Below, piece after piece: positions 5,675 to 53,472 of a stretch of 64,000 bases of DNA (within the stretch, counting starts at the first letter, position 1; every line of letters begins with the position of its first letter). Origin of the DNA: an uncultured Candidatus Saccharibacteria bacterium. GTDB taxonomy: Bacteria; Patescibacteriota; Minisyncoccia; UBA6257; Colwellbacteraceae. Position numbers and translations under genes: made by a program. Under the pieces are notes generated by a model. The model searched no databases and was not told the DNA's origin. It saw nothing but the letters and a program-made list of their open reading frames with translations. The stretch spans positions 2,251 through 66,250 of the forward strand of contig CAYHTW010000002.1 of NCBI GenBank assembly GCA_964360065.1. The letters run 5' to 3'.

Positions 5675-5718
5675 TATGATTAATTATACCTTTACTCTCT
5701 CGTTACTACTTACCAAAC

Positions 5719-7026
5719 TTAGATCCTTTCTTCAAGGGTCACCTTGAAATTGAGTGTCTCTGGCCCCCGGAGTATCTTCACATTAATAACGTCCCCAATG
5801 TTGTAGTTTTGGATAATATCGCCCAACTGATGATCTGAATTAATTTTCGTGTCACCAAATTGAGTTATAATATCTCCGCTTTGAATGCCCGCCTTAGAGG
5901 CCGGAGAGTTTGGTACGATAGCTGTATTCGCACCATCGGAACTAATTAATGCGCCTTCAGCAACCGCAAGTTTTTTGGACTTAGCGAGATCTGCGTCAAT
6001 AGTGATATATCTCACCCCAAGATATGGAACTTTAATGGAGCCTGTGGAGCTGACAGACTTAATATCTTTCTTGGCCCGATTGATAGGAATTGCAAAGCCG
6101 ATACTTTGAGCACCTGAAGCAATCGCGGTATTAATCCCTATAACCTCACCTTTGAGGTTTAGTAGTGGTCCCCCGGAATTGCCCGGATTAATGGCCGCGT
6201 CAGTTTGAATCACTCCCTGTAGGGTCTCTGTGCCAAATTGACTGCCAGAGGCGGTGATGGTTCTTGATAGACCTGAAATAACGCCGACGGAAACCGTGTT
6301 GCTAAATTCTCCCAAAGAATAGCCGATAGCTATAGCCGTTTGACCAAGTTTAATAGAATCCGAGTTTCCTATCTTAGCGGCGGTTAATCCGATACCATCA
6401 ATTTTAATAATAGCCAAGTCCTGGAAGGGGTCTCTAGCTAAAACTTTAGCTGGGTATTTTTTGCCATTATAGGTAATCACTGTATATTCGGCGGCGGTGT
6501 CTGCTACCACGTGTTTATTGGTAAGAACCAAGCCGTCGCTAGAAACTATAAAGCCGCTACCGCCGCCAATCTTTTGAAGTTGAGTGCCTTTCTGACAAGG
6601 CTGATAGTATTGAATGCCTCCTCCACCAAAAAGATTCTGTAAATCTGGAGAAAGATTAGAGAATGGGTCGTAGGGACACTGCTCAATAATGGGTATATTT
6701 TTAGAGATAATTATAGAAACAACGCTTTTAGAAGAATCATCAACTGCTTTTATTATCGCCTGTTCATAATCAACCGTGGGTGCATAAATAGTAACTGGGG
6801 TGTTTGCAGGAACAGGGGAAGGGTCAGGGGCTGGTTTAGGTGTGGGGGCTGGAGTAGGGACGGGGACAGGGCTGGCGTTTGGTTTAGGAGTAAGAAAGCT
6901 GGGGATGTATTTATTAAATAAATCTTGGATAAAGTTAGCTGAAGCTTGGGGGGAATTCAAAACTGACCCCAAAACAGCACCGAGGATAAAAATCGCGAAA
7001 ATAAAACCTGAAATTCTTTTATTCAT
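5719..7026 (-). CDS. HtrA/DegP-family trypsin-like serine protease with C-terminal PDZ domain and a Pro/Thr-rich N-terminal linker
   Basis: Catalytic triad motifs TNKHVV, DLAIIKI and GNSGGPL; a PDZ-like C-terminus; a signal-anchor. Confidence 0.85.
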   Translation of the reverse strand: MNKRISGFIFAIFILGAVLGSVLNSPQASANFIQDLFNKYIPSFLTPKPNASPVPVPTPAPTPKPAPDPSPVPANTPVTIYAPTVDYEQAIIKAVDDSSKSVVSIIISKNIPIIEQCPYDPFSNLSPDLQNLFGGGGIQYYQPCQKGTQLQKIGGGSGFIVSSDGLVLTNKHVVADTAAEYTVITYNGKKYPAKVLARDPFQDLAIIKIDGIGLTAAKIGNSDSIKLGQTAIAIGYSLGEFSNTVSVGVISGLSRTITASGSQFGTETLQGVIQTDAAINPGNSGGPLLNLKGEVIGINTAIASGAQSIGFAIPINRAKKDIKSVSSTGSIKVPYLGVRYITIDADLAKSKKLAVAEGALISSDGANTAIVPNSPASKAGIQSGDIITQFGDTKINSDHQLGDIIQNYNIGDVINVKILRGPETLNFKVTLEERI

Positions 7027-15243: not shown

Positions 15244-15299
15244 TAGGTTTATTATACACCAATTAAAACAAAGCCCGCCCAAAGGACGGGTGGGCCAGC

Positions 15300-48098: not shown

Positions 48099-48174
48099 GC
48101 GCCCATAGCTCAGCTGGTTAGAGCACAGTCCTTATAAGGCTGGGGTCCTTGGTTCGAGTCCAAGTGGGCGCACC
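48099..48174 (+). tRNA. tRNA-Ile with anticodon TAT (UAU), CCA encoded
   Basis: Anticodon stem-loop cagtc-ctTATaa-ggctg, T-loop ggttcgagtcc. Confidence 0.7.
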
Positions 48175-48180
48175 AGATAA

Positions 48181-49800: not shown

Positions 49801-50714
49801 TCTAATGCAACTTTAAGATTATTTAGATTATCTCTCATCTCTGTAAAATAGTTTTTACCGGCGTTGGTCTCGGCTCTCGTAAGTCCTTCCAATGGATTAA
49901 GCACTAAGGTTTTAGCTTCTATCTCTGTAGCTATGGTTTCTGATAACTTGGGATTCACCAAGCTCTCAAAGAAAATATACTTTACCTTGTTTTCTTTGGC
50001 GAATTTTACTATTACTCCGATTTCTTTAGAGGAGGGCTCGGCATCGGGAGAAAGACCGGCGATGGATATTTGCCGTAAACTATAAGTCGCAGCCAGATAA
50101 CCAAAGAAGGCGTGGGATGTAATAATGTCTTTAAGGGCGCAGTTTTTAAGCCCGGCTGAATAGTCGGCGTTAAGATTTTTAAGATCATTACTTAAAGCCT
50201 CCGCGTTAGTAGCGTAGTAAGAAGTGTTAACTGGATCGGACGCTTGAAAACCGCTCAATATCTTGTTGGCCATCTCTTCAGCCAAAAGAGGAGAAAGCCA
50301 AACGTGTGGGTCAACTACGTTTTCACCTTCCTCAACCAATCGCTGGTTAAAAAGACCCCCTCCGGCCACAACTAAGACAGTCCGCTTATGGTTTAAATTA
50401 CTCTTTATGTTATCTCCCCAAACTTCCAGGTTGCCTCCGTTAAGGACTAGTAAATTACTTGATTCAATGAGCGCCATATCCTGGGCAGTTGGTTCGTAAT
50501 CGTGTGGTTCAACCCCGGCTGGGGTGATGTTGTAAACATCTGCCTTATCTCCGCCTATTCGTTCCGAGAAGTAATAAAGAGGGTAGAAACTGGCTACCAC
50601 AGTGATCTTTGCTCCATTATTTTCTGGAGAACTCACCCGATTGTTAAGCAGGGCAAGTCCGCCCAGTAAACTGAATAGGAAAATTATCGCTATTAAATAT
50701 TTGGTTTTTGTCAT
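49791..50714 (-). CDS. Metal ABC transporter substrate-binding protein (ZnuA/TroA-like)
   Basis: Signal anchor and the cluster-9 SBP pattern. Confidence 0.75.
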   Translation of the reverse strand: MTKTKYLIAIIFLFSLLGGLALLNNRVSSPENNGAKITVVASFYPLYYFSERIGGDKADVYNITPAGVEPHDYEPTAQDMALIESSNLLVLNGGNLEVWGDNIKSNLNHKRTVLVVAGGGLFNQRLVEEGENVVDPHVWLSPLLAEEMANKILSGFQASDPVNTSYYATNAEALSNDLKNLNADYSAGLKNCALKDIITSHAFFGYLAATYSLRQISIAGLSPDAEPSSKEIGVIVKFAKENKVKYIFFESLVNPKLSETIATEIEAKTLVLNPLEGLTRAETNAGKNYFTEMRDNLNNLKVALECE

Positions 50715-50854
50715 TACTTAAGAGTTTAAACTAACCGCAACTTATTTGCCTAGTTAAGTGCCACTTCCTAAGAGCGGGGTGTTTCGGATAAAATAGAGGA
50801 TATATCTGATATTCAAGAAAAGATGTTTCCTATAGAATGCGCCAGAGTAGTATA

Positions 50855-50874
50855 GCGCGCTTAGCTCAGTGGTA
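50855..50874 (+). repeat. Duplicated 5' end of tRNA-Val (20 nt, gcgcgcttagctcagtggta), immediately followed by a GC-rich hairpin (50875-50912)
   Basis: Identical to 51158-51177 at the start of the intact tRNA-Val. Confidence 0.8.
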
Positions 50875-50927
50875 CCCGCCCGAACGACTGAGCGTCGTTC
50901 AGTCGGGCGGGGAACGATATAACTACG

Positions 50928-51167
50928 ATGTTTACGGTTTATGTTTTAAAAGATGGTGTTGGTAAATTTTACAAAGGGTTGACCAATAACATAGAGAGAA
51001 GATTGAAAGAGCATAAAAACGGTCATACAATTACTACATCAAGAATGCCAAATCTTGAAGTGGTGTACACAGAGACTTTTGAAGACTTCAAAACTGCCAG
51101 AAAACGAGAGCTATATCTAAAGTCAGCGGCTGGCAGAAGATTTCTTAAAAGGGTATTGCGCGCTTAG
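50928..51167 (+). CDS. GIY-YIG nuclease, YhbQ/UPF0213-like (79 aa); the ORF ends inside the tRNA-Val gene
   Basis: VYVLKDGVGKFYKGLTNNIERRLKEH GIY-YIG motif; last codons VLRA* are encoded by the tRNA acceptor stem. Confidence 0.75.
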   Translation: MFTVYVLKDGVGKFYKGLTNNIERRLKEHKNGHTITTSRMPNLEVVYTETFEDFKTARKRELYLKSAAGRRFLKRVLRA

Positions 51168-51232
51168 CTCAGTGGTAGAGCGACTCGTTTACACCGAGTA
51201 GGCCGGGGGTTCAATCCCCTCAGCGCGCACCA
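51158..51232 (+). tRNA. tRNA-Val (anticodon TAC), CCA encoded
   Basis: Anticodon loop ttTACac, T-loop ggttcaatccc. Confidence 0.85.
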
Positions 51233-51351
51233 AGAGAGTAGGCGTAGGCTTCTTTTATACTTTGGAGTGTAAATCTGGAGACAAAATGTATAGTAAATTT
51301 GTTGAAGTAGATGTTGAGTAAACAAAGATTATCCTGCTATCATTTATACAC

Positions 51352-51954
51352 ATGCCACAAACTCTAAAGCGTATATGGAGAATAGCCCGTATTCCATTGG
51401 GCGTTGTTTTGCTTCTTTATGTCGGGCTTGTCATATATCGCGTTCCTGCCGCATTTGAAAGGCAAAAGACACAAGATGTCGTTGCGCAAATTCACGCGCA
51501 AAAGCTGACGCTTGCCGACGTGAACGGCGAGAATCTTCCGCCCGTGCCCGACCCCGCTTTGGTAGATACAACGATTGAGGGTGTGGATGCGAACAAGAAC
51601 GGAATTCGCGACGATGTTGAGCTGGCGATTTTCAAAAAGTATCCCGACTCCGCAAGAATCCGCGCGGCGGAGTTGCAGTACGCGATGGCGTTACAGAACG
51701 AGATGACAAGCAATGTGTTCAATTCGGAGACACTTATAGCAGTTATGCAACAGGAGGATAGAGCATATTTTTGTATCGGCGATGCCGTCCCCAATCAATC
51801 GCCAGACATTCTTTCTAAGAAAACTGATGATTTAGCTTTTAATATCACTACTCGAAAACAGAGACATCAAGATATTTTCAGTAGCTACATGTCCTCGTTT
51901 AAGAGTGTGGGGGGGCTTCACTGTGATATTGATTTAACATCTCTACCTAACTAA
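51352..51954 (+). CDS. Membrane-anchored hypothetical protein in a compositionally distinct (GC-richer) segment
   Basis: N-terminal TM helix. Local GC looks about 50%, against roughly 42% in the flanking sequence (estimated by eye). Confidence 0.45.
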   Translation: MPQTLKRIWRIARIPLGVVLLLYVGLVIYRVPAAFERQKTQDVVAQIHAQKLTLADVNGENLPPVPDPALVDTTIEGVDANKNGIRDDVELAIFKKYPDSARIRAAELQYAMALQNEMTSNVFNSETLIAVMQQEDRAYFCIGDAVPNQSPDILSKKTDDLAFNITTRKQRHQDIFSSYMSSFKSVGGLHCDIDLTSLPN

Positions 51955-52163
51955 GCTCAAAAAATCTTCCGCTTTCTCCGCTATCACTCTCCCGCCATTC
52001 CCGAAAACCTCAAACGAAGCAGAAAAAGATACTGTTTTGCGAGGAGGCAGGGGCATAAACGCCAGCATTGAAGCCAGAAATGGAGAGACGTACCCCTACA
52101 AACGGGGCATGCCGGATTGAAGGGGTGATTGAAGGGGTAAACGTCAGCAATTTCTGCTAAAAT

Positions 52164-53034: not shown

Positions 53035-53472
53035 CTAAAATTTTGGATTCTTATCGTAATATCCCGATTTATAAAGGCGCCATATAACCTTATAATTTTT
53101 AGGCACGTTCGTGTCTCTTCCAATATTTTCTAACCATTCCTCAAACTGTATGCCCTTATGTCCATAAAGCCTTTTATAGAAGAACGGTACAATTGTATTT
53201 TTAAGCGTTCCAAGGTCCCTAACCATCAACCTAACTATTGCGCCTCTATTATGACCGTCTTTCCTATACGGGCCGAGCCTATACATTCTAGTCTTTATAT
53301 TAAGATGATTTCTTACGGCTTCTACGAGATCACCATCTCTCTCATTCATGGTGATAGTGAACATAGGAAGTCTTGGTTTCATTGATTGGCCATTCTTCAA
53401 TGGTACATTACAAAAACTAAAACATCCCTCTCCTTCTATAAGTCCCCTAATGTAATCGTTAGTTAAAATCAT
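53035..53472 (-). CDS. Free-standing single-motif LAGLIDADG homing-endonuclease-like protein (145 aa)
   Basis: YIRGLIEGEGCFSF is a LAGLIDADG-type motif; its size matches homodimeric single-motif enzymes. Confidence 0.7.
   Translation of the reverse strand: MILTNDYIRGLIEGEGCFSFCNVPLKNGQSMKPRLPMFTITMNERDGDLVEAVRNHLNIKTRMYRLGPYRKDGHNRGAIVRLMVRDLGTLKNTIVPFFYKRLYGHKGIQFEEWLENIGRDTNVPKNYKVIWRLYKSGYYDKNPKF

Follow-up and report, generated by a model that had tools for sequence, protein, structure and literature searches.

The segment at positions 50855–51232 of the window, the whole 64-kb stretch of DNA analysed here, is probably a copy of an old and widespread selfish nuclease-plus-tRNA module of Patescibacteria, the redundant tRNA copy of which has been colonised by palindromes. 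This reading draws on the architecture of the locus, its recurrence, the precision with which palindromes are inserted, their dispersal, and the occurrence of remnants of foreign tRNA alleles. Many different tRNA genes of these ultra-small bacteria show the three-part layout, which appears to be undescribed; full-text searches of the literature found no description of tRNA-fused GIY-YIG genes or of these palindromes. The parts in the window are as follows.

50855..50874, + strand: 5′ remnant of tRNA-Val, part 1, equal to tRNA nt 1–20 (exact 20-nt repeat)
50875..50911, no strand given: 37-nt GC-rich palindromic mini-element (fold and family membership)
50912..50917, + strand: 5′ remnant of tRNA-Val, part 2, GAACGA against GAGCGA of tRNA nt 21–26 (5/6)
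50918..50927, + strand: 10-nt leader TATAACTACG between remnant and start codon
50928..51167, + strand: 79-aa minimal GIY-YIG nuclease gene, UPF0213/YhbQ/Slx1-like (Pfam, PDB profile, AlphaFold2)
51158..51232, + strand: intact tRNA-Val(TAC) with CCA encoded (ARAGORN; Rfam RF00005, 71.7 bits)

An exact 20-nt duplicate of the tRNA-Val 5′ end had been noticed in the initial annotation, and GCGCGCTTAGCTCAGTGGTA indeed has two exact occurrences in the 64-kb window, at 50855–50874 and 51158–51177, with zero occurrences of a second copy expected in shuffled sequence. With one mismatch allowed, the repeat grows to 25 nt (50850–50874 versus 51153–51177, spacing 303, 96% identity), the 5 nt preceding the remnant, GTATA (50850–50854), resembling the GTATT that precedes the intact tRNA-Val. 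Homology to the tRNA resumes past the hairpin at 50912–50917, and the remnant therefore comprises tRNA nt 1–26; minus the hairpin, the upstream copy aligns to these nucleotides at 25/26, the hairpin sitting precisely between remnant nt 20 and 21, in the D-loop, without target duplication. The leader TATAACTACG has no similarity to tRNA-Val nt 27–36 and is 7/10 identical to CCTAACTACT, the leader of a related locus from a Colwellbacteria genome (L001). Between the two repeats lies an insert of 283 nt, in which the GIY-YIG gene is the sole ORF and no recombinase is found. No stop codon belongs to the gene itself, and its frame continues for 10 nt inside tRNA-Val (51158–51167), an overlap made up of a single base of the Leu77 codon, the codons for Arg78 and Ala79, and the stop; the TAG (51165–51167) is the tRNA's U8-A9-G10 and lies just past the acceptor stem, which corrects the earlier placement of the last four codons plus stop within that stem. 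Further copies are to be found not in the window, where hairpin and GIY-YIG gene are each single-copy and one of ten tRNAs has a module, but in relatives, which carry modules at many tRNAs. No Rfam family other than tRNA was detected in the window at gathering scores or in 50000–52000 at E <= 1, and the hairpin, remnant and trailer motif matched no known RNA family. A tRNA-like decoy, formerly suggested for the fragment plus hairpin, is not borne out: ARAGORN and Rfam call nothing on the fragment, and 50855–50930 folds only as the hairpin.

By family, the protein is predicted to be a minimal, single-domain UPF0213/YhbQ-type (COG2827) GIY-YIG nuclease, in agreement with its first identification as a 79-aa YhbQ-like protein. 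Residues 2–68 match Pfam PF01541 (49.1 bits, cut-off 22.6, E = 6.9e-13), and the only PDB sequence matches in a profile search are to UPF0213 proteins, EF2693 (E = 2.6e-07) and BH0048 (E = 2.8e-06), with 1ywl and 1zg2 as the entries. The AlphaFold2 model (pLDDT 93.2) comprises E2-8, E14-19, H22-30, E44-51, H54-65 and H67-77, in line with the β-β-α-β-α core fold of the GIY-YIG superfamily, and Foldseek matches it to 1zg2, 6seh, 1ywl and 1yd5, with Slx1 (6seh) at TMq 0.71 and 30–32% identity. Residues Y5, Y15, R24/R25, H29 and E61 are invariant across 34 relatives, the conserved Tyr pair, the Arg and the metal-binding Glu presumably having the catalytic roles known from the family. No NCBIfam model is specifically matched by the 79-aa protein, and with TIGR01453 (group I intron endonuclease), for which the cut-off is 56.05, it reaches 15.6 bits. 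All 79 residues belong to the catalytic core; a DNA-binding domain is absent, and site-specific homing as in I-TevI or SegB is therefore unlikely, while the likeness to Slx1 and UPF0213 suggests, by analogy, that the enzyme recognises branched or stem-loop DNA for cutting and not a sequence. Identity of the ORF to that of L001 by codon position is 0.84/0.92/0.71, and the gene is under purifying selection. A phage origin was considered and set aside, with no relative in IMG/VR contigs and only one weak PHROG endonuclease match; PADLOC reported no defence match.

Across species-representative genomes, 482 relatives were confirmed, 80 loci of these were read, and 80 modules (79 relatives plus the window) were scored for palindromes. 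A same-strand tRNA begins within 60 nt of the ORF stop, or overlaps the ORF, in 77/80 loci, the stop falling inside the tRNA in 61/80 and its TAG coinciding with tRNA nt 8–10 in 47/80; the adjoining tRNAs are of eight types (Ala, Thr, Asp, Val, Ile, Phe, Lys and His). The distance from the conserved GRRF codon to tRNA +1 is 14 nt in 28/78 loci, and the in-frame classes sum to 50/78. With hairpins stripped, a remnant of >=15 nt with >=90% identity to the adjoining tRNA lies upstream of the ORF in 43/79, beginning at tRNA nt 1–2 in 35 of these 43 and having a length N of 15–49, with one case of 73. Palindromes of the form CCCGCCCG...CGGGCGGG occur upstream of the ORF in 65/80 modules, mostly within the same-tRNA remnant, and in most relatives the tRNA sequence (GAGC or GCTC) continues past the hairpin.

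Several loci preserve traces of replacement. In L006, a unit of ORF and intact tRNA-Thr (GCCGGAG...CTCCGGC) is bracketed by two tRNA remnants, one 5′ (GCCAGCG...) and one 3′ (...CGCTGGC), and remnants of a different allele are also present in L005, L023, L052, L056 and L037; the remnant allele differs in several loci, where ORF and tRNA have therefore taken the place of a resident gene. Either tRNA copy can be the intact one (L055, L014), two tandem hairpin–ORF units precede one tRNA-Arg in L164, and some loci hold layered remnants. Hairpin-bearing 5′ remnants occur without an ORF (L063, ~5690–5850; L079, 1–200) and a clean ORF–tRNA pair occurs without a remnant (L010); the parts are therefore separable. 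Nearest-neighbour ORFs adjoin tRNAs of the same amino-acid type in 37/80 cases versus 15.8 ± 3.9 expected, tRNA types mixing among ORFs below about 80% identity, and single genomes may hold several modules at different tRNAs (L002/L033, L042/L063), such paralogous modules being only 66–71% identical. The tRNA-His, tRNA-Phe and tRNA-Ile(TAT) genes are free in the window and occupied in other genomes; tRNA-Arg(TCT) is likewise free in the window, and L139 has a distantly related GIY-YIG ORF next to that tRNA, on its downstream side. The mobile nuclease cassette first envisaged finds support, as a selfish unit mobile over evolutionary time, in the occupied and free tRNAs and in the layered and foreign-allele remnants; its single insertion with a 20-nt target duplication does not.

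The hairpin at 50875–50911 is a member of a dispersed family of precisely inserting palindromes and not a part of the cassette. It is compositionally alien to its surroundings, as initially described (73% G+C versus about 35% in the flanks and ORF), although its length is 37 nt rather than 38; its predicted DNA fold has −15.8 kcal/mol (z = −5.2), and it is of type A, CCCGCCCG-AACG-ACTGA...TCAGT-CGGGCGGG. About 100 copies were found in the 80 loci, and the family comprises 118 distinct sequences of 27–48 nt, with a covarying inner stem of 6 pentamer types; palindromes occur in both orientations and nested in one another, number 0–3 per module with varying position and orientation, and in some loci lie downstream of the tRNA. 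Their density reaches 94 copies per 56.5 kb in module zones versus 5 per 385 kb elsewhere (128-fold). Insertion points in tRNA remnants follow nt 9 (11 cases), 13 (4), 20–22 (29), 31/32 and 37, and 46/50 mapped insertions are at D-stem borders, that is, at junctions of single and double strand; hairpin orientation depends on the site, being the same in 11/11 at nt 9|10 and reversed in 4/4 at 13|14.

Beyond the modules, the family is dispersed in metagenomes (>120 stretches at least), where about 90% of a hairpin-selected sample is far from any GIY-YIG gene and most dispersed palindromes lie far from both GIY-YIG genes and tRNAs. Long open frames hold 26/78 dispersed copies, almost always of a length divisible by 3, as exemplified by a palindrome that adds 12 codons in frame (L073, 2072–2107). 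Direct-repeat flanks show no excess over chance at k = 2–3, and the few longer ones lie in naturally repetitive genes; a search for a target motif gave no more than a faint preference for T at −2 and for A at +2. The family has no REP tag, and no HUH transposase was seen beside the palindrome copies inspected. The hairpin has no T-run and is found inside coding frames, so it is not a terminator: of the conserved unit with a common terminator hairpin that had been named as a contrary outcome, the shared arrangement (in L001) and the commonness of the hairpin were found, whereas the terminator was not. A hairpin-like site at 15274 proved to be an ordinary terminator-like stem outside the family. 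Pairing of nuclease clades with hairpin subtypes was also rejected, as differing subtypes occur in single loci (L040, L063, L078), so there is no sign of nuclease–hairpin specificity. With most dispersed hairpins remote from any GIY-YIG gene, the link between nuclease and palindromes is only statistical.

In the reading preferred here, a minimal Slx1/UPF0213-type nuclease gene runs into the 5′ end of a functional tRNA gene, with which it is presumably co-transcribed, and usually ends on the tRNA's own U8-A9-G10 as TAG. The dead upstream 5′ copy (nt 1 to N, N about 20–49), of the same isoacceptor, may be left over from the placement of the ORF–tRNA unit into or beside a resident gene, so that only one copy must stay intact. 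Palindromes have inserted precisely into the redundant copy without target duplication, at D-arm stem/loop junctions (after nt 9, 13 and 20–22) or in the anticodon loop. Comparison of loci suggests that ORF and tRNA move as a cassette, possibly by break-stimulated recombination in which tRNA sequence provides portable homology, and the tRNA cargo would make the cassette indispensable after the resident copy decays. A structure-specific nuclease may cut stem-loop junctions, and may either mobilise the palindromes or be exploited by them. Several points speak against this reading: its parts are separable, its link to the palindromes is statistical, the protein has no DNA-binding domain, and, if the nuclease cuts tRNA genes, there is no reason for the intact neighbour to be immune, since in most loci it has the sequence of the remnant.

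A two-component mobile system, so far undescribed, in which the Slx1-like nuclease cuts stem-loop junctions in folded tRNA-gene DNA, drives conserved GC-rich palindromes in, thereby inactivates the resident tRNA gene, and travels with a spare tRNA as a replacement drive, is unlikely. Rather unlikely, too, is a natural ‘cleave-and-rescue’, in which the nuclease cuts the resident tRNA gene or drives palindromes into it while the cassette carries a spare intact tRNA, so that the cell becomes dependent on the cassette, the palindromes acting as non-autonomous partners of the nuclease rather than passengers. The 128-fold density of hairpins beside the nuclease gene, the 46/50 insertions at D-stem borders, the site-dependent orientation, and foreign-allele remnants that hold hairpins while the cassette tRNA is intact are all in keeping with cutting of this kind, as is the nearest characterised structural relative, Slx1, an enzyme that cuts branched and stem-loop DNA. 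However, the ORF-adjoining copy can itself hold hairpins (L014, L055), so the cassette tRNA is not immune. The distance of about 90% of the hairpin-selected metagenome sample from GIY-YIG genes also speaks against it, as does the divergence of paralogous modules, with no sign of recent activity; moreover, GIY-YIG enzymes hydrolyse DNA without rejoining, so insertion would need other factors.

Comparison with L001 bears on the age of the module. The same remnant, ORF and tRNA are present there with the same hairpin flipped: the remnant is 26/27 identical and the hairpin 37/37 as reverse complement at the same site, at a synonymous divergence of the ORF of about 30%, remnant and hairpin thus having changed much less than synonymous sites (P about 8e-9). 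This excess needs gene conversion, re-insertion or selection; it is not predicted by a purely ‘dead’ remnant and counts against the cassette reading. Since the window and L001 have the entire module in common, its turnover is slow, and the module is old. Neither metagenome contigs nor homologues of the downstream gene yielded a filled-versus-empty pair of otherwise identical loci; the nearest homologues of the downstream 200-aa gene are 69% identical, with other neighbours and no tRNA, and are uninformative as to an empty site.

The same conservation would be explained by a domesticated, vertically inherited operon, in which a housekeeping nuclease is co-expressed with certain tRNAs and the remnant plus hairpin forms a conserved leader, regulating or stabilising the transcript, for example through a 5′ stem-loop or by offering the 3′ acceptor strand of the tRNA an alternative partner; remnant nt 1–10 can indeed pair with that strand as an inverted repeat, the paralogues are old, and 1,299 clusters at E <= 1e-10 make the family a very large one. 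This alternative is nonetheless improbable: only one in ten of the window's tRNAs has the module, the occupied tRNA varies by genome, and remnant length and hairpin number, position and orientation vary. Foreign-allele and 3′ remnants, tandem ORFs and ORF-less remnants exist, and the same hairpins occur within protein-coding frames. All of these are traits of selfish DNA and not those of a regulatory leader.

Very improbable is the single cassette of hairpin plus ORF first proposed, with a 20-nt target-site duplication and the hairpin as cassette end. An exact 20-nt direct repeat does flank hairpin and ORF; yet with the return of tRNA homology at nt 21–26 the duplicate proves to be a remnant of 26 nt into which unrelated DNA has inserted, rather than a one-off target duplication, and in relatives remnants reach nt 49 and further, hairpins lie elsewhere in the remnant, in 0–3 copies, nested, or downstream of the tRNA, and their family is dispersed independently of the ORF. 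A split or intron-containing tRNA gene, with the upstream fragment as 5′ exon and the rest up to downstream nt 21 removed from the RNA, can hardly be credited: although the insertions are precise and intron-like and coincide with positions that introns also occupy in archaeal tRNAs, splicing is made unnecessary by the complete, high-scoring, CCA-bearing tRNA downstream, the upstream copy stops at nt 26, no intron of group I or II is detected by Rfam, and an intact copy accompanies the hairpin-bearing copies in every locus inspected.

Among known systems, fungal mitochondria harbour mobile ORFs that supply a substitute for part of the host gene, as well as GC clusters. The likeness lies in a GIY-YIG insertion tolerated through an accompanying duplicate of the interrupted gene part, and in GC-rich palindromes spread in an AT-rich genome; in contrast, the mitochondrial ORFs usually replace the 3′ end of a protein gene by in-frame fusion, whereas a whole tRNA is carried here, and the palindromes described here have their own conserved sequence. 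Rickettsia palindromic elements (RPE) and REP/MITE-like repeats are short dispersed palindromes in reduced genomes, and share with the present family the many dispersed copies with conserved ends and, in the case of RPE, the in-frame location of one third of dispersed copies within long ORFs, in multiples of three. The present palindromes, at 27–48 nt, are much shorter than RPE, lack the GTAG/CGTC tag, nearby RAYT transposase and target duplication of REP/MITE, and differ from all of these in their strong concentration in dead tRNA copies beside a GIY-YIG gene. Genomic islands at tRNA genes likewise have partial-tRNA direct repeats flanking the insert and keep an intact tRNA, but theirs involve the 3′ part and a tyrosine or serine recombinase, whereas here the 5′ part flanks 283 nt. 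Slx1, the structure match, partners with Slx4 and has a RING domain; we know of no link between UPF0213 proteins and tRNA genes.

Also comparable are insertion sequences in the rRNA genes of CPR bacteria, which encode GIY-YIG proteins, resemble neither group I nor group II introns and lie at the top or base of stem-loops, many short ORF-less ones being uncharacterised (J Bacteriol 2024, PMC11270868). That report covers 16S and 23S rRNA and leaves tRNA unmentioned (PMC11270868). The bacterial group is the same and GIY-YIG ORFs again occur in structural-RNA genes, but here the ORF is fused to the 5′ end of the RNA gene rather than placed inside it, with a dead duplicate upstream and a defined palindrome family. 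Phage T4 SegB, a free-standing GIY-YIG homing endonuclease, is reported to be located in a tRNA gene cluster and co-inherited with flanking markers (PMC2330249). SegB, by that account situated among tRNA genes, and I-TevI share the GIY-YIG domain and the character of a small selfish gene; unlike the 79-aa catalytic core alone found here, they have a DNA-binding domain and long sites, and their homing involves neither gene duplication nor a stop codon inside a tRNA. As for occupancy of the homing type, a given isoacceptor may be occupied in one genome and free in another, and no near-identical pair of loci with and without the gene was found.

The genomes of Patescibacteria are very small and are so far known to hold, as a rule, one copy of each tRNA. 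If the preferred reading is true, they carry a widespread class of selfish element living on tRNA genes, in which one transcript and one stop codon serve both a nuclease gene and an essential tRNA, the gene arriving with a tRNA copy and the displaced copy filling with precisely inserted palindromes. A concrete, testable function would then be available for the large UPF0213/YhbQ family, which to our knowledge has no assigned role; a possible source would be indicated for short CPR rRNA-gene insertions that have lacked an explanation; and attention would be drawn to a family of 27–48-nt palindromes that also occurs in frame inside proteins. Were the two-component drive true, it would represent natural gene replacement among the most reduced bacteria, directed at RNA genes that are essential. 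The modules also call for caution in annotation, since these ORFs are extended by gene callers and split tRNAs are miscalled, with effects on tRNA counts of metagenome-assembled genomes.

Two minor candidates at the locus were rejected. A putative 3′ remnant of tRNA-Val at 51236–51252 aligns locally no better than shuffles (p = 0.2), and a sigma-70-like promoter inside the ORF (51003–51031, 10/12 match), considered as a new promoter for the tRNA, has its hexamers kept in only 10/76 relatives and is regarded as incidental. Of the four metagenome contigs that encode the identical protein, three are identical to the window over the compared region, and the fourth is 100% identical apart from the 22 nt with which the contig starts.

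The window holds an old copy of a widespread, apparently undescribed tRNA-linked nuclease module, in which a small GIY-YIG open reading frame (ORF) is fused to the 5′ end of a tRNA gene and preceded by a dead partial copy of that gene (the remnant) and a GC-rich palindrome. The component parts are as follows.

50855-50874, first copy of the 20-mer GCGCGCTTAGCTCAGTGGTA
50875-50911, palindrome, 37 nt, directly 3′ of the first GCGCGCTTAGCTCAGTGGTA copy
50928-51167 (+), GIY-YIG ORF, 79 aa (Pfam GIY-YIG, 49.1 bits; cut-off 22.6)
51158-51232 (+), tRNA-Val(TAC) (ARAGORN; Rfam tRNA, 71.7 bits)
51158-51177, second copy of the 20-mer, forming the first bases of tRNA-Val(TAC)

The 20-mer occurs exactly twice in the 64-kb window, with no matches expected in shuffled sequence, confirming the exact duplication of the tRNA start described in the initial annotation; the 5 nt upstream are also repeated with one mismatch (GTATA on the remnant side, GTATT on the tRNA side). 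The hairpin reported after the duplicate is present and GC-rich (73% G+C versus ∼35% in the flanks; −15.8 kcal/mol folded as DNA, z = −5.2), with a length of 37 nt, not quite the 38 nt first given. Likewise, the ORF does end within the tRNA, which encodes its stop codon TAG (U8-A9-G10), the overlap being 10 nt where four codons plus stop had been counted. Between palindrome and ORF lie the six bases GAACGA, which correspond to tRNA-Val nt 21-26 (GAGCGA), and a further 10 bases to the ORF start; with the palindrome taken out, the upstream piece matches tRNA-Val nt 1-26 at 25 of 26 positions. Because tRNA homology resumes after it, the palindrome is, on this alignment, a precise insertion into a longer dead 5′ copy of the tRNA, and not a part or the end of a nuclease cassette, a reading also at odds with the dispersal of the palindrome family. 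The observation stands, its interpretation in part. Only one copy of the family occurs within the 64-kb window, to which a Hainich groundwater metagenome contig could be matched.

The closest relative, locus L001 (Colwellbacteria), has tRNA-Val(TAC) as in the window, an ORF 84% identical and a remnant spanning nt 1-27, in which the window's 37-nt palindrome occupies an identical site as its exact reverse complement; the flanking genes are unrelated. With remnant, palindrome, ORF and tRNA all shared, the module is therefore old and inherited as a block, so that the ancient conserved unit which the initial annotation set against its own reading is partly borne out. Identities to L001 of 0.84/0.92/0.71 by codon position are consistent with purifying selection on the protein. 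Given the third-position identity of 0.71, the probability of one change or fewer in 64 remnant-plus-palindrome sites is ∼8e-9; such conservation must, by this estimate, involve gene conversion (from the adjacent tRNA and from other palindrome copies), independent re-insertion or selection on the remnant and palindrome, and is the main reason that the remnant is not called simply junk.

Scanning a single genome for each species yielded 482 confirmed relatives, and 80 of these loci (L001-L080, Patescibacteria) were inspected. In 77 of the 80, a same-strand tRNA begins at most 60 nt from the ORF stop; the stop lies inside the tRNA in 61, and in 47 is a TAG formed by tRNA nt 8-10, as in the window. 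At 28 of 78 loci, 14 nt separate the conserved GRRF codon from tRNA position +1, with in-frame distances (14, 17, 20 and so on) totalling 50 of 78. Linked tRNAs comprise Ala (three anticodons), Thr (two), Asp, Val (three), Ile (two), Phe, Lys and His. ORFs of at least 84% identity always share a tRNA type, and types mix below ∼80%; nearest-neighbour ORFs agree in type at 37 of 80 loci versus 15.8 ± 3.9 expected. Several modules can occupy different tRNAs in one genome, such paralogues being only 66-71% identical, and tRNA-His, Phe and Ile(TAT), unoccupied in the window, are occupied in other genomes. The window's tRNA-Ile(TAT) was called by ARAGORN at 48099-48175 (+); this tRNA is module-linked in five relatives (L012, L014, L019, L031 and L034). 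Bacteria seldom have an Ile(UAU) tRNA, relying mostly on a tRNA with a modified CAU anticodon. More distant GIY-YIG relatives (36-49% identity) adjoin tRNA-Arg genes at metagenome loci L164, L129 and L139: L164 (7771-8457, −) follows the window's plan with two tandem palindrome-ORF units ahead of one tRNA-Arg(TCG), and L139 (4004-4392) has the ORF downstream of tRNA-Arg(TCT), an isoacceptor unoccupied in the window.

At least one palindrome (CCCGCCCG...CGGGCGGG) lies upstream of the ORF in 65 of 80 modules (79 relatives and the window), and nearly all mapped insertions fall at D-stem borders or in the anticodon loop.

Palindrome insertion sites in tRNA remnants (last tRNA nucleotide before the insertion, number of cases)
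nt 9, 11 cases
nt 10, 1 case
nt 13, 4 cases
nt 20-22 (GGTA/GAGC junction), 29 cases
nt 27, 1 case
nt 31/32, 2 cases
nt 37, 2 cases

Excision restored the tRNA sequence without a duplicated base in all cases inspected. The palindromes comprise several subtypes in both orientations, and are nested one within another at five loci, identifying them as insertion elements in their own right. Across L001-L080 orientation depends on the site: AACG is on the 5′ side in 11/11 insertions at nt 9|10, the reverse holds in 4/4 at 13|14, and those in the D-loop divide 34 to 16; in the first two classes, the palindrome end lacking AACG/CGTT abuts the GCTC strand of the D-stem. Pattern matches in the 80 loci number 94 in 56.5 kb of module zones versus 5 in the other 385 kb, a 128-fold enrichment. 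TCAGTCGG is present in the right arm of type A palindromes (window 50896-50907) and TCGGTA in type B; each matches the canonical D-loop sequence of bacteria (GCTCAGTCGGTAGAGC) exactly, which could be chance, or a hint at palindrome origin or targeting.

A metagenome scan for the palindrome alone returned at least 120 stretches, of which 80 loci (L085-L164) were analysed; among the matches listed, about one-tenth of copies adjoin a GIY-YIG gene or tRNA, and 26 of 78 dispersed copies lie in frame within long ORFs (for example, L099 7841-7876, L137 5667-5702 and L160 2628-2660), as does one in a protein-coding ORF of the module-bearing locus L073 (2072-2107). These in-frame copies, which resemble Rickettsia palindromic elements, are almost all 27, 30, 33, 36, 39 or 48 nt long, adding ∼9-16 codons. 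The ends and the AACG/CGTT pair are conserved in sequence, and the inner 5-nt stem covaries (ACTGA, ACCGA, TACCG, ACCGG, ACTGG and TTCCG, each with its matching partner; no matches in a shifted-partner control). No target duplication was found at the insertions, flank preference is weak, and Rfam holds no family for the palindrome. The hairpin regarded as compositionally alien is thus, by sequence, one member of a widespread family of precisely inserted palindromes; a common terminator, the other reading raised against the initial annotation, is right as to commonness and fails on the absence of a T-run and the occurrence in coding frames.

Approximately 30 loci have an exact 20-28-nt copy of the adjacent tRNA's start 70-130 nt ahead of the ATG; with the palindromes removed, 43 of 79 show, upstream of the ORF, a stretch of 15 nt or more that is 90% or more identical to the neighbouring tRNA, beginning at nt 1-2 in 35 of the 43 and ending between nt 15 and 49 (nt 73 in L055), 0-20 nt ahead of the ATG. 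Some remnants derive from a foreign allele. In L006, two remnants, one 5′ (GCCAGCG...) and one 3′ (nt 13-76, ending ...CGCTGGC), bracket the ORF and its intact tRNA-Thr (GCCGGAG...CTCCGGC); they pair with one another and not with the intact tRNA, and together carry four palindromes; in L005 the remnant's acceptor strand is unlike the adjacent tRNA, with more debris upstream and downstream; and in L023, L052, L056 and L037 an intact tRNA is followed by a truncated, palindrome-bearing tRNA of another allele. L055 is the reverse case, the upstream copy being intact and that adjoining the ORF dead, and in L014 two palindromes sit in the ORF-adjacent copy, and it is a third copy that is intact. Exactly one copy is intact in each locus inspected; which one varies. 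Many relatives have a second small element 3′ of the intact tRNA and terminator (L018 2264-2430; L001 3304-3480; L065 3304-3420; L071, L020, L045), consisting of the tRNA T-arm in reverse complement, a GC-rich motif of 75-110 nt that is conserved (GGGGTCGGGAAAC...GTTTCCCGYGKWGGAAGGA), an exact 3′ tRNA remnant (starting at ∼nt 56-60 and running through the 3′ end, nt 73-77) and a second copy of the terminator. The element matches nothing in Rfam, and looks like another mini-element, T-loop-targeting and duplicating the tRNA 3′ end.

The 79-aa GIY-YIG ORF was correctly assigned as UPF0213/YhbQ-like: by sequence, a profile of 34 relatives matches just two proteins of solved structure, EF2693 and BH0048, each of them UPF0213, and the confident AlphaFold2 model (pLDDT 93.2) best matches BH0048 and the Slx1 nuclease domain (TMq 0.71, 30-32% identity). 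On the NCBIfam model for group I intron endonucleases the protein reaches 15.6 bits, the cut-off being 56, and all 79 residues form the catalytic core, with no DNA-binding domain of the kind behind long I-TevI/SegB targets. Residues Y5, Y15, R24/R25, H29 and E61 are invariant in the 34 relatives. The wider family comprises 1,299 clusters (E <= 1e-10) among 1.84 billion representatives, close relatives being Patescibacteria by source name, including Paceibacterota, Nomurabacteria, Kaiserbacteria and Colwellbacteria. In L074, a very divergent UPF0213-like GIY-YIG ORF (1207-1470) lies ∼150 nt downstream of a tmRNA gene (664-1052).

The foreign-allele remnants, mixing of tRNA types below ∼80%, old paralogues, and free versus occupied isoacceptors indicate that ORF and tRNA form a selfish unit of slow turnover that displaces a resident gene, inherited along with its tRNA over short times and relocating over long ones. 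Architecture, recurrence, precise insertion at stem-loop borders, palindrome dispersal and foreign-allele remnants are directly observed. The unit would enter a genome by recombining with the resident tRNA for that isoacceptor, for which the conserved tRNA sequence would act as portable homology, with one junction sometimes illegitimate (the L006 join uses a GCT microhomology). Of the two resulting copies, the redundant one would decay through truncation and palindrome insertion, and a genome with a dead resident copy could no longer lose the cassette. Reading into the tRNA would keep the ORF on the tRNA transcript, from which RNase P processing would strip the stop codon, keeping nuclease levels low. 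Since Slx1, the nearest relative to have been characterised, cleaves branched and stem-loop DNA, the nuclease is a plausible agent of the cuts at D-stem borders and palindromes, that link being statistical only. The sparing of the intact tRNA is not accounted for by this mechanism, nor are the palindrome-bearing 5′ remnants that directly precede an intact tRNA, no nuclease ORF intervening (L063 5690-5850; L079 1-200, where leader plus tRNA nt 1-27 is repeated in tandem) and clean ORF-tRNA pairs without remnant (L010); a true two-component gene-replacement system is given a modest chance.

The module was rated as related to two known things, free-standing selfish GIY-YIG genes and palindromic mini-repeats. 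Individual parts have analogies in fungal mitochondrial ORFs, which bring along a substitute for part of a gene, in mitochondrial GC clusters and in Rickettsia palindromic elements. The published case that comes closest concerns CPR rRNA genes, in which insertion sequences that encode GIY-YIG proteins and are unlike any intron sit at stem-loop tops or bases, beside many short uncharacterised insertions, tRNA not being mentioned (PMC11270868). Phage T4 SegB, a GIY-YIG homing endonuclease within a tRNA cluster, differs in having a DNA-binding domain (PMC2330249). Neither the tRNA-linked GIY-YIG module nor the palindrome sequence is described in the full-text literature covered, which omits most subscription journals, and prior description is possible. 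A free-standing LAGLIDADG-type ORF of 145 aa (53035-53472, −; Pfam LAGLIDADG_1 in the source's precomputed annotation), near which neither rRNA nor intron was called, lies between a 195-aa ORF and a UPF0102/YraN-like gene and, 1.8 kb from the GIY-YIG module, adds a second gene resembling those of homing endonucleases.
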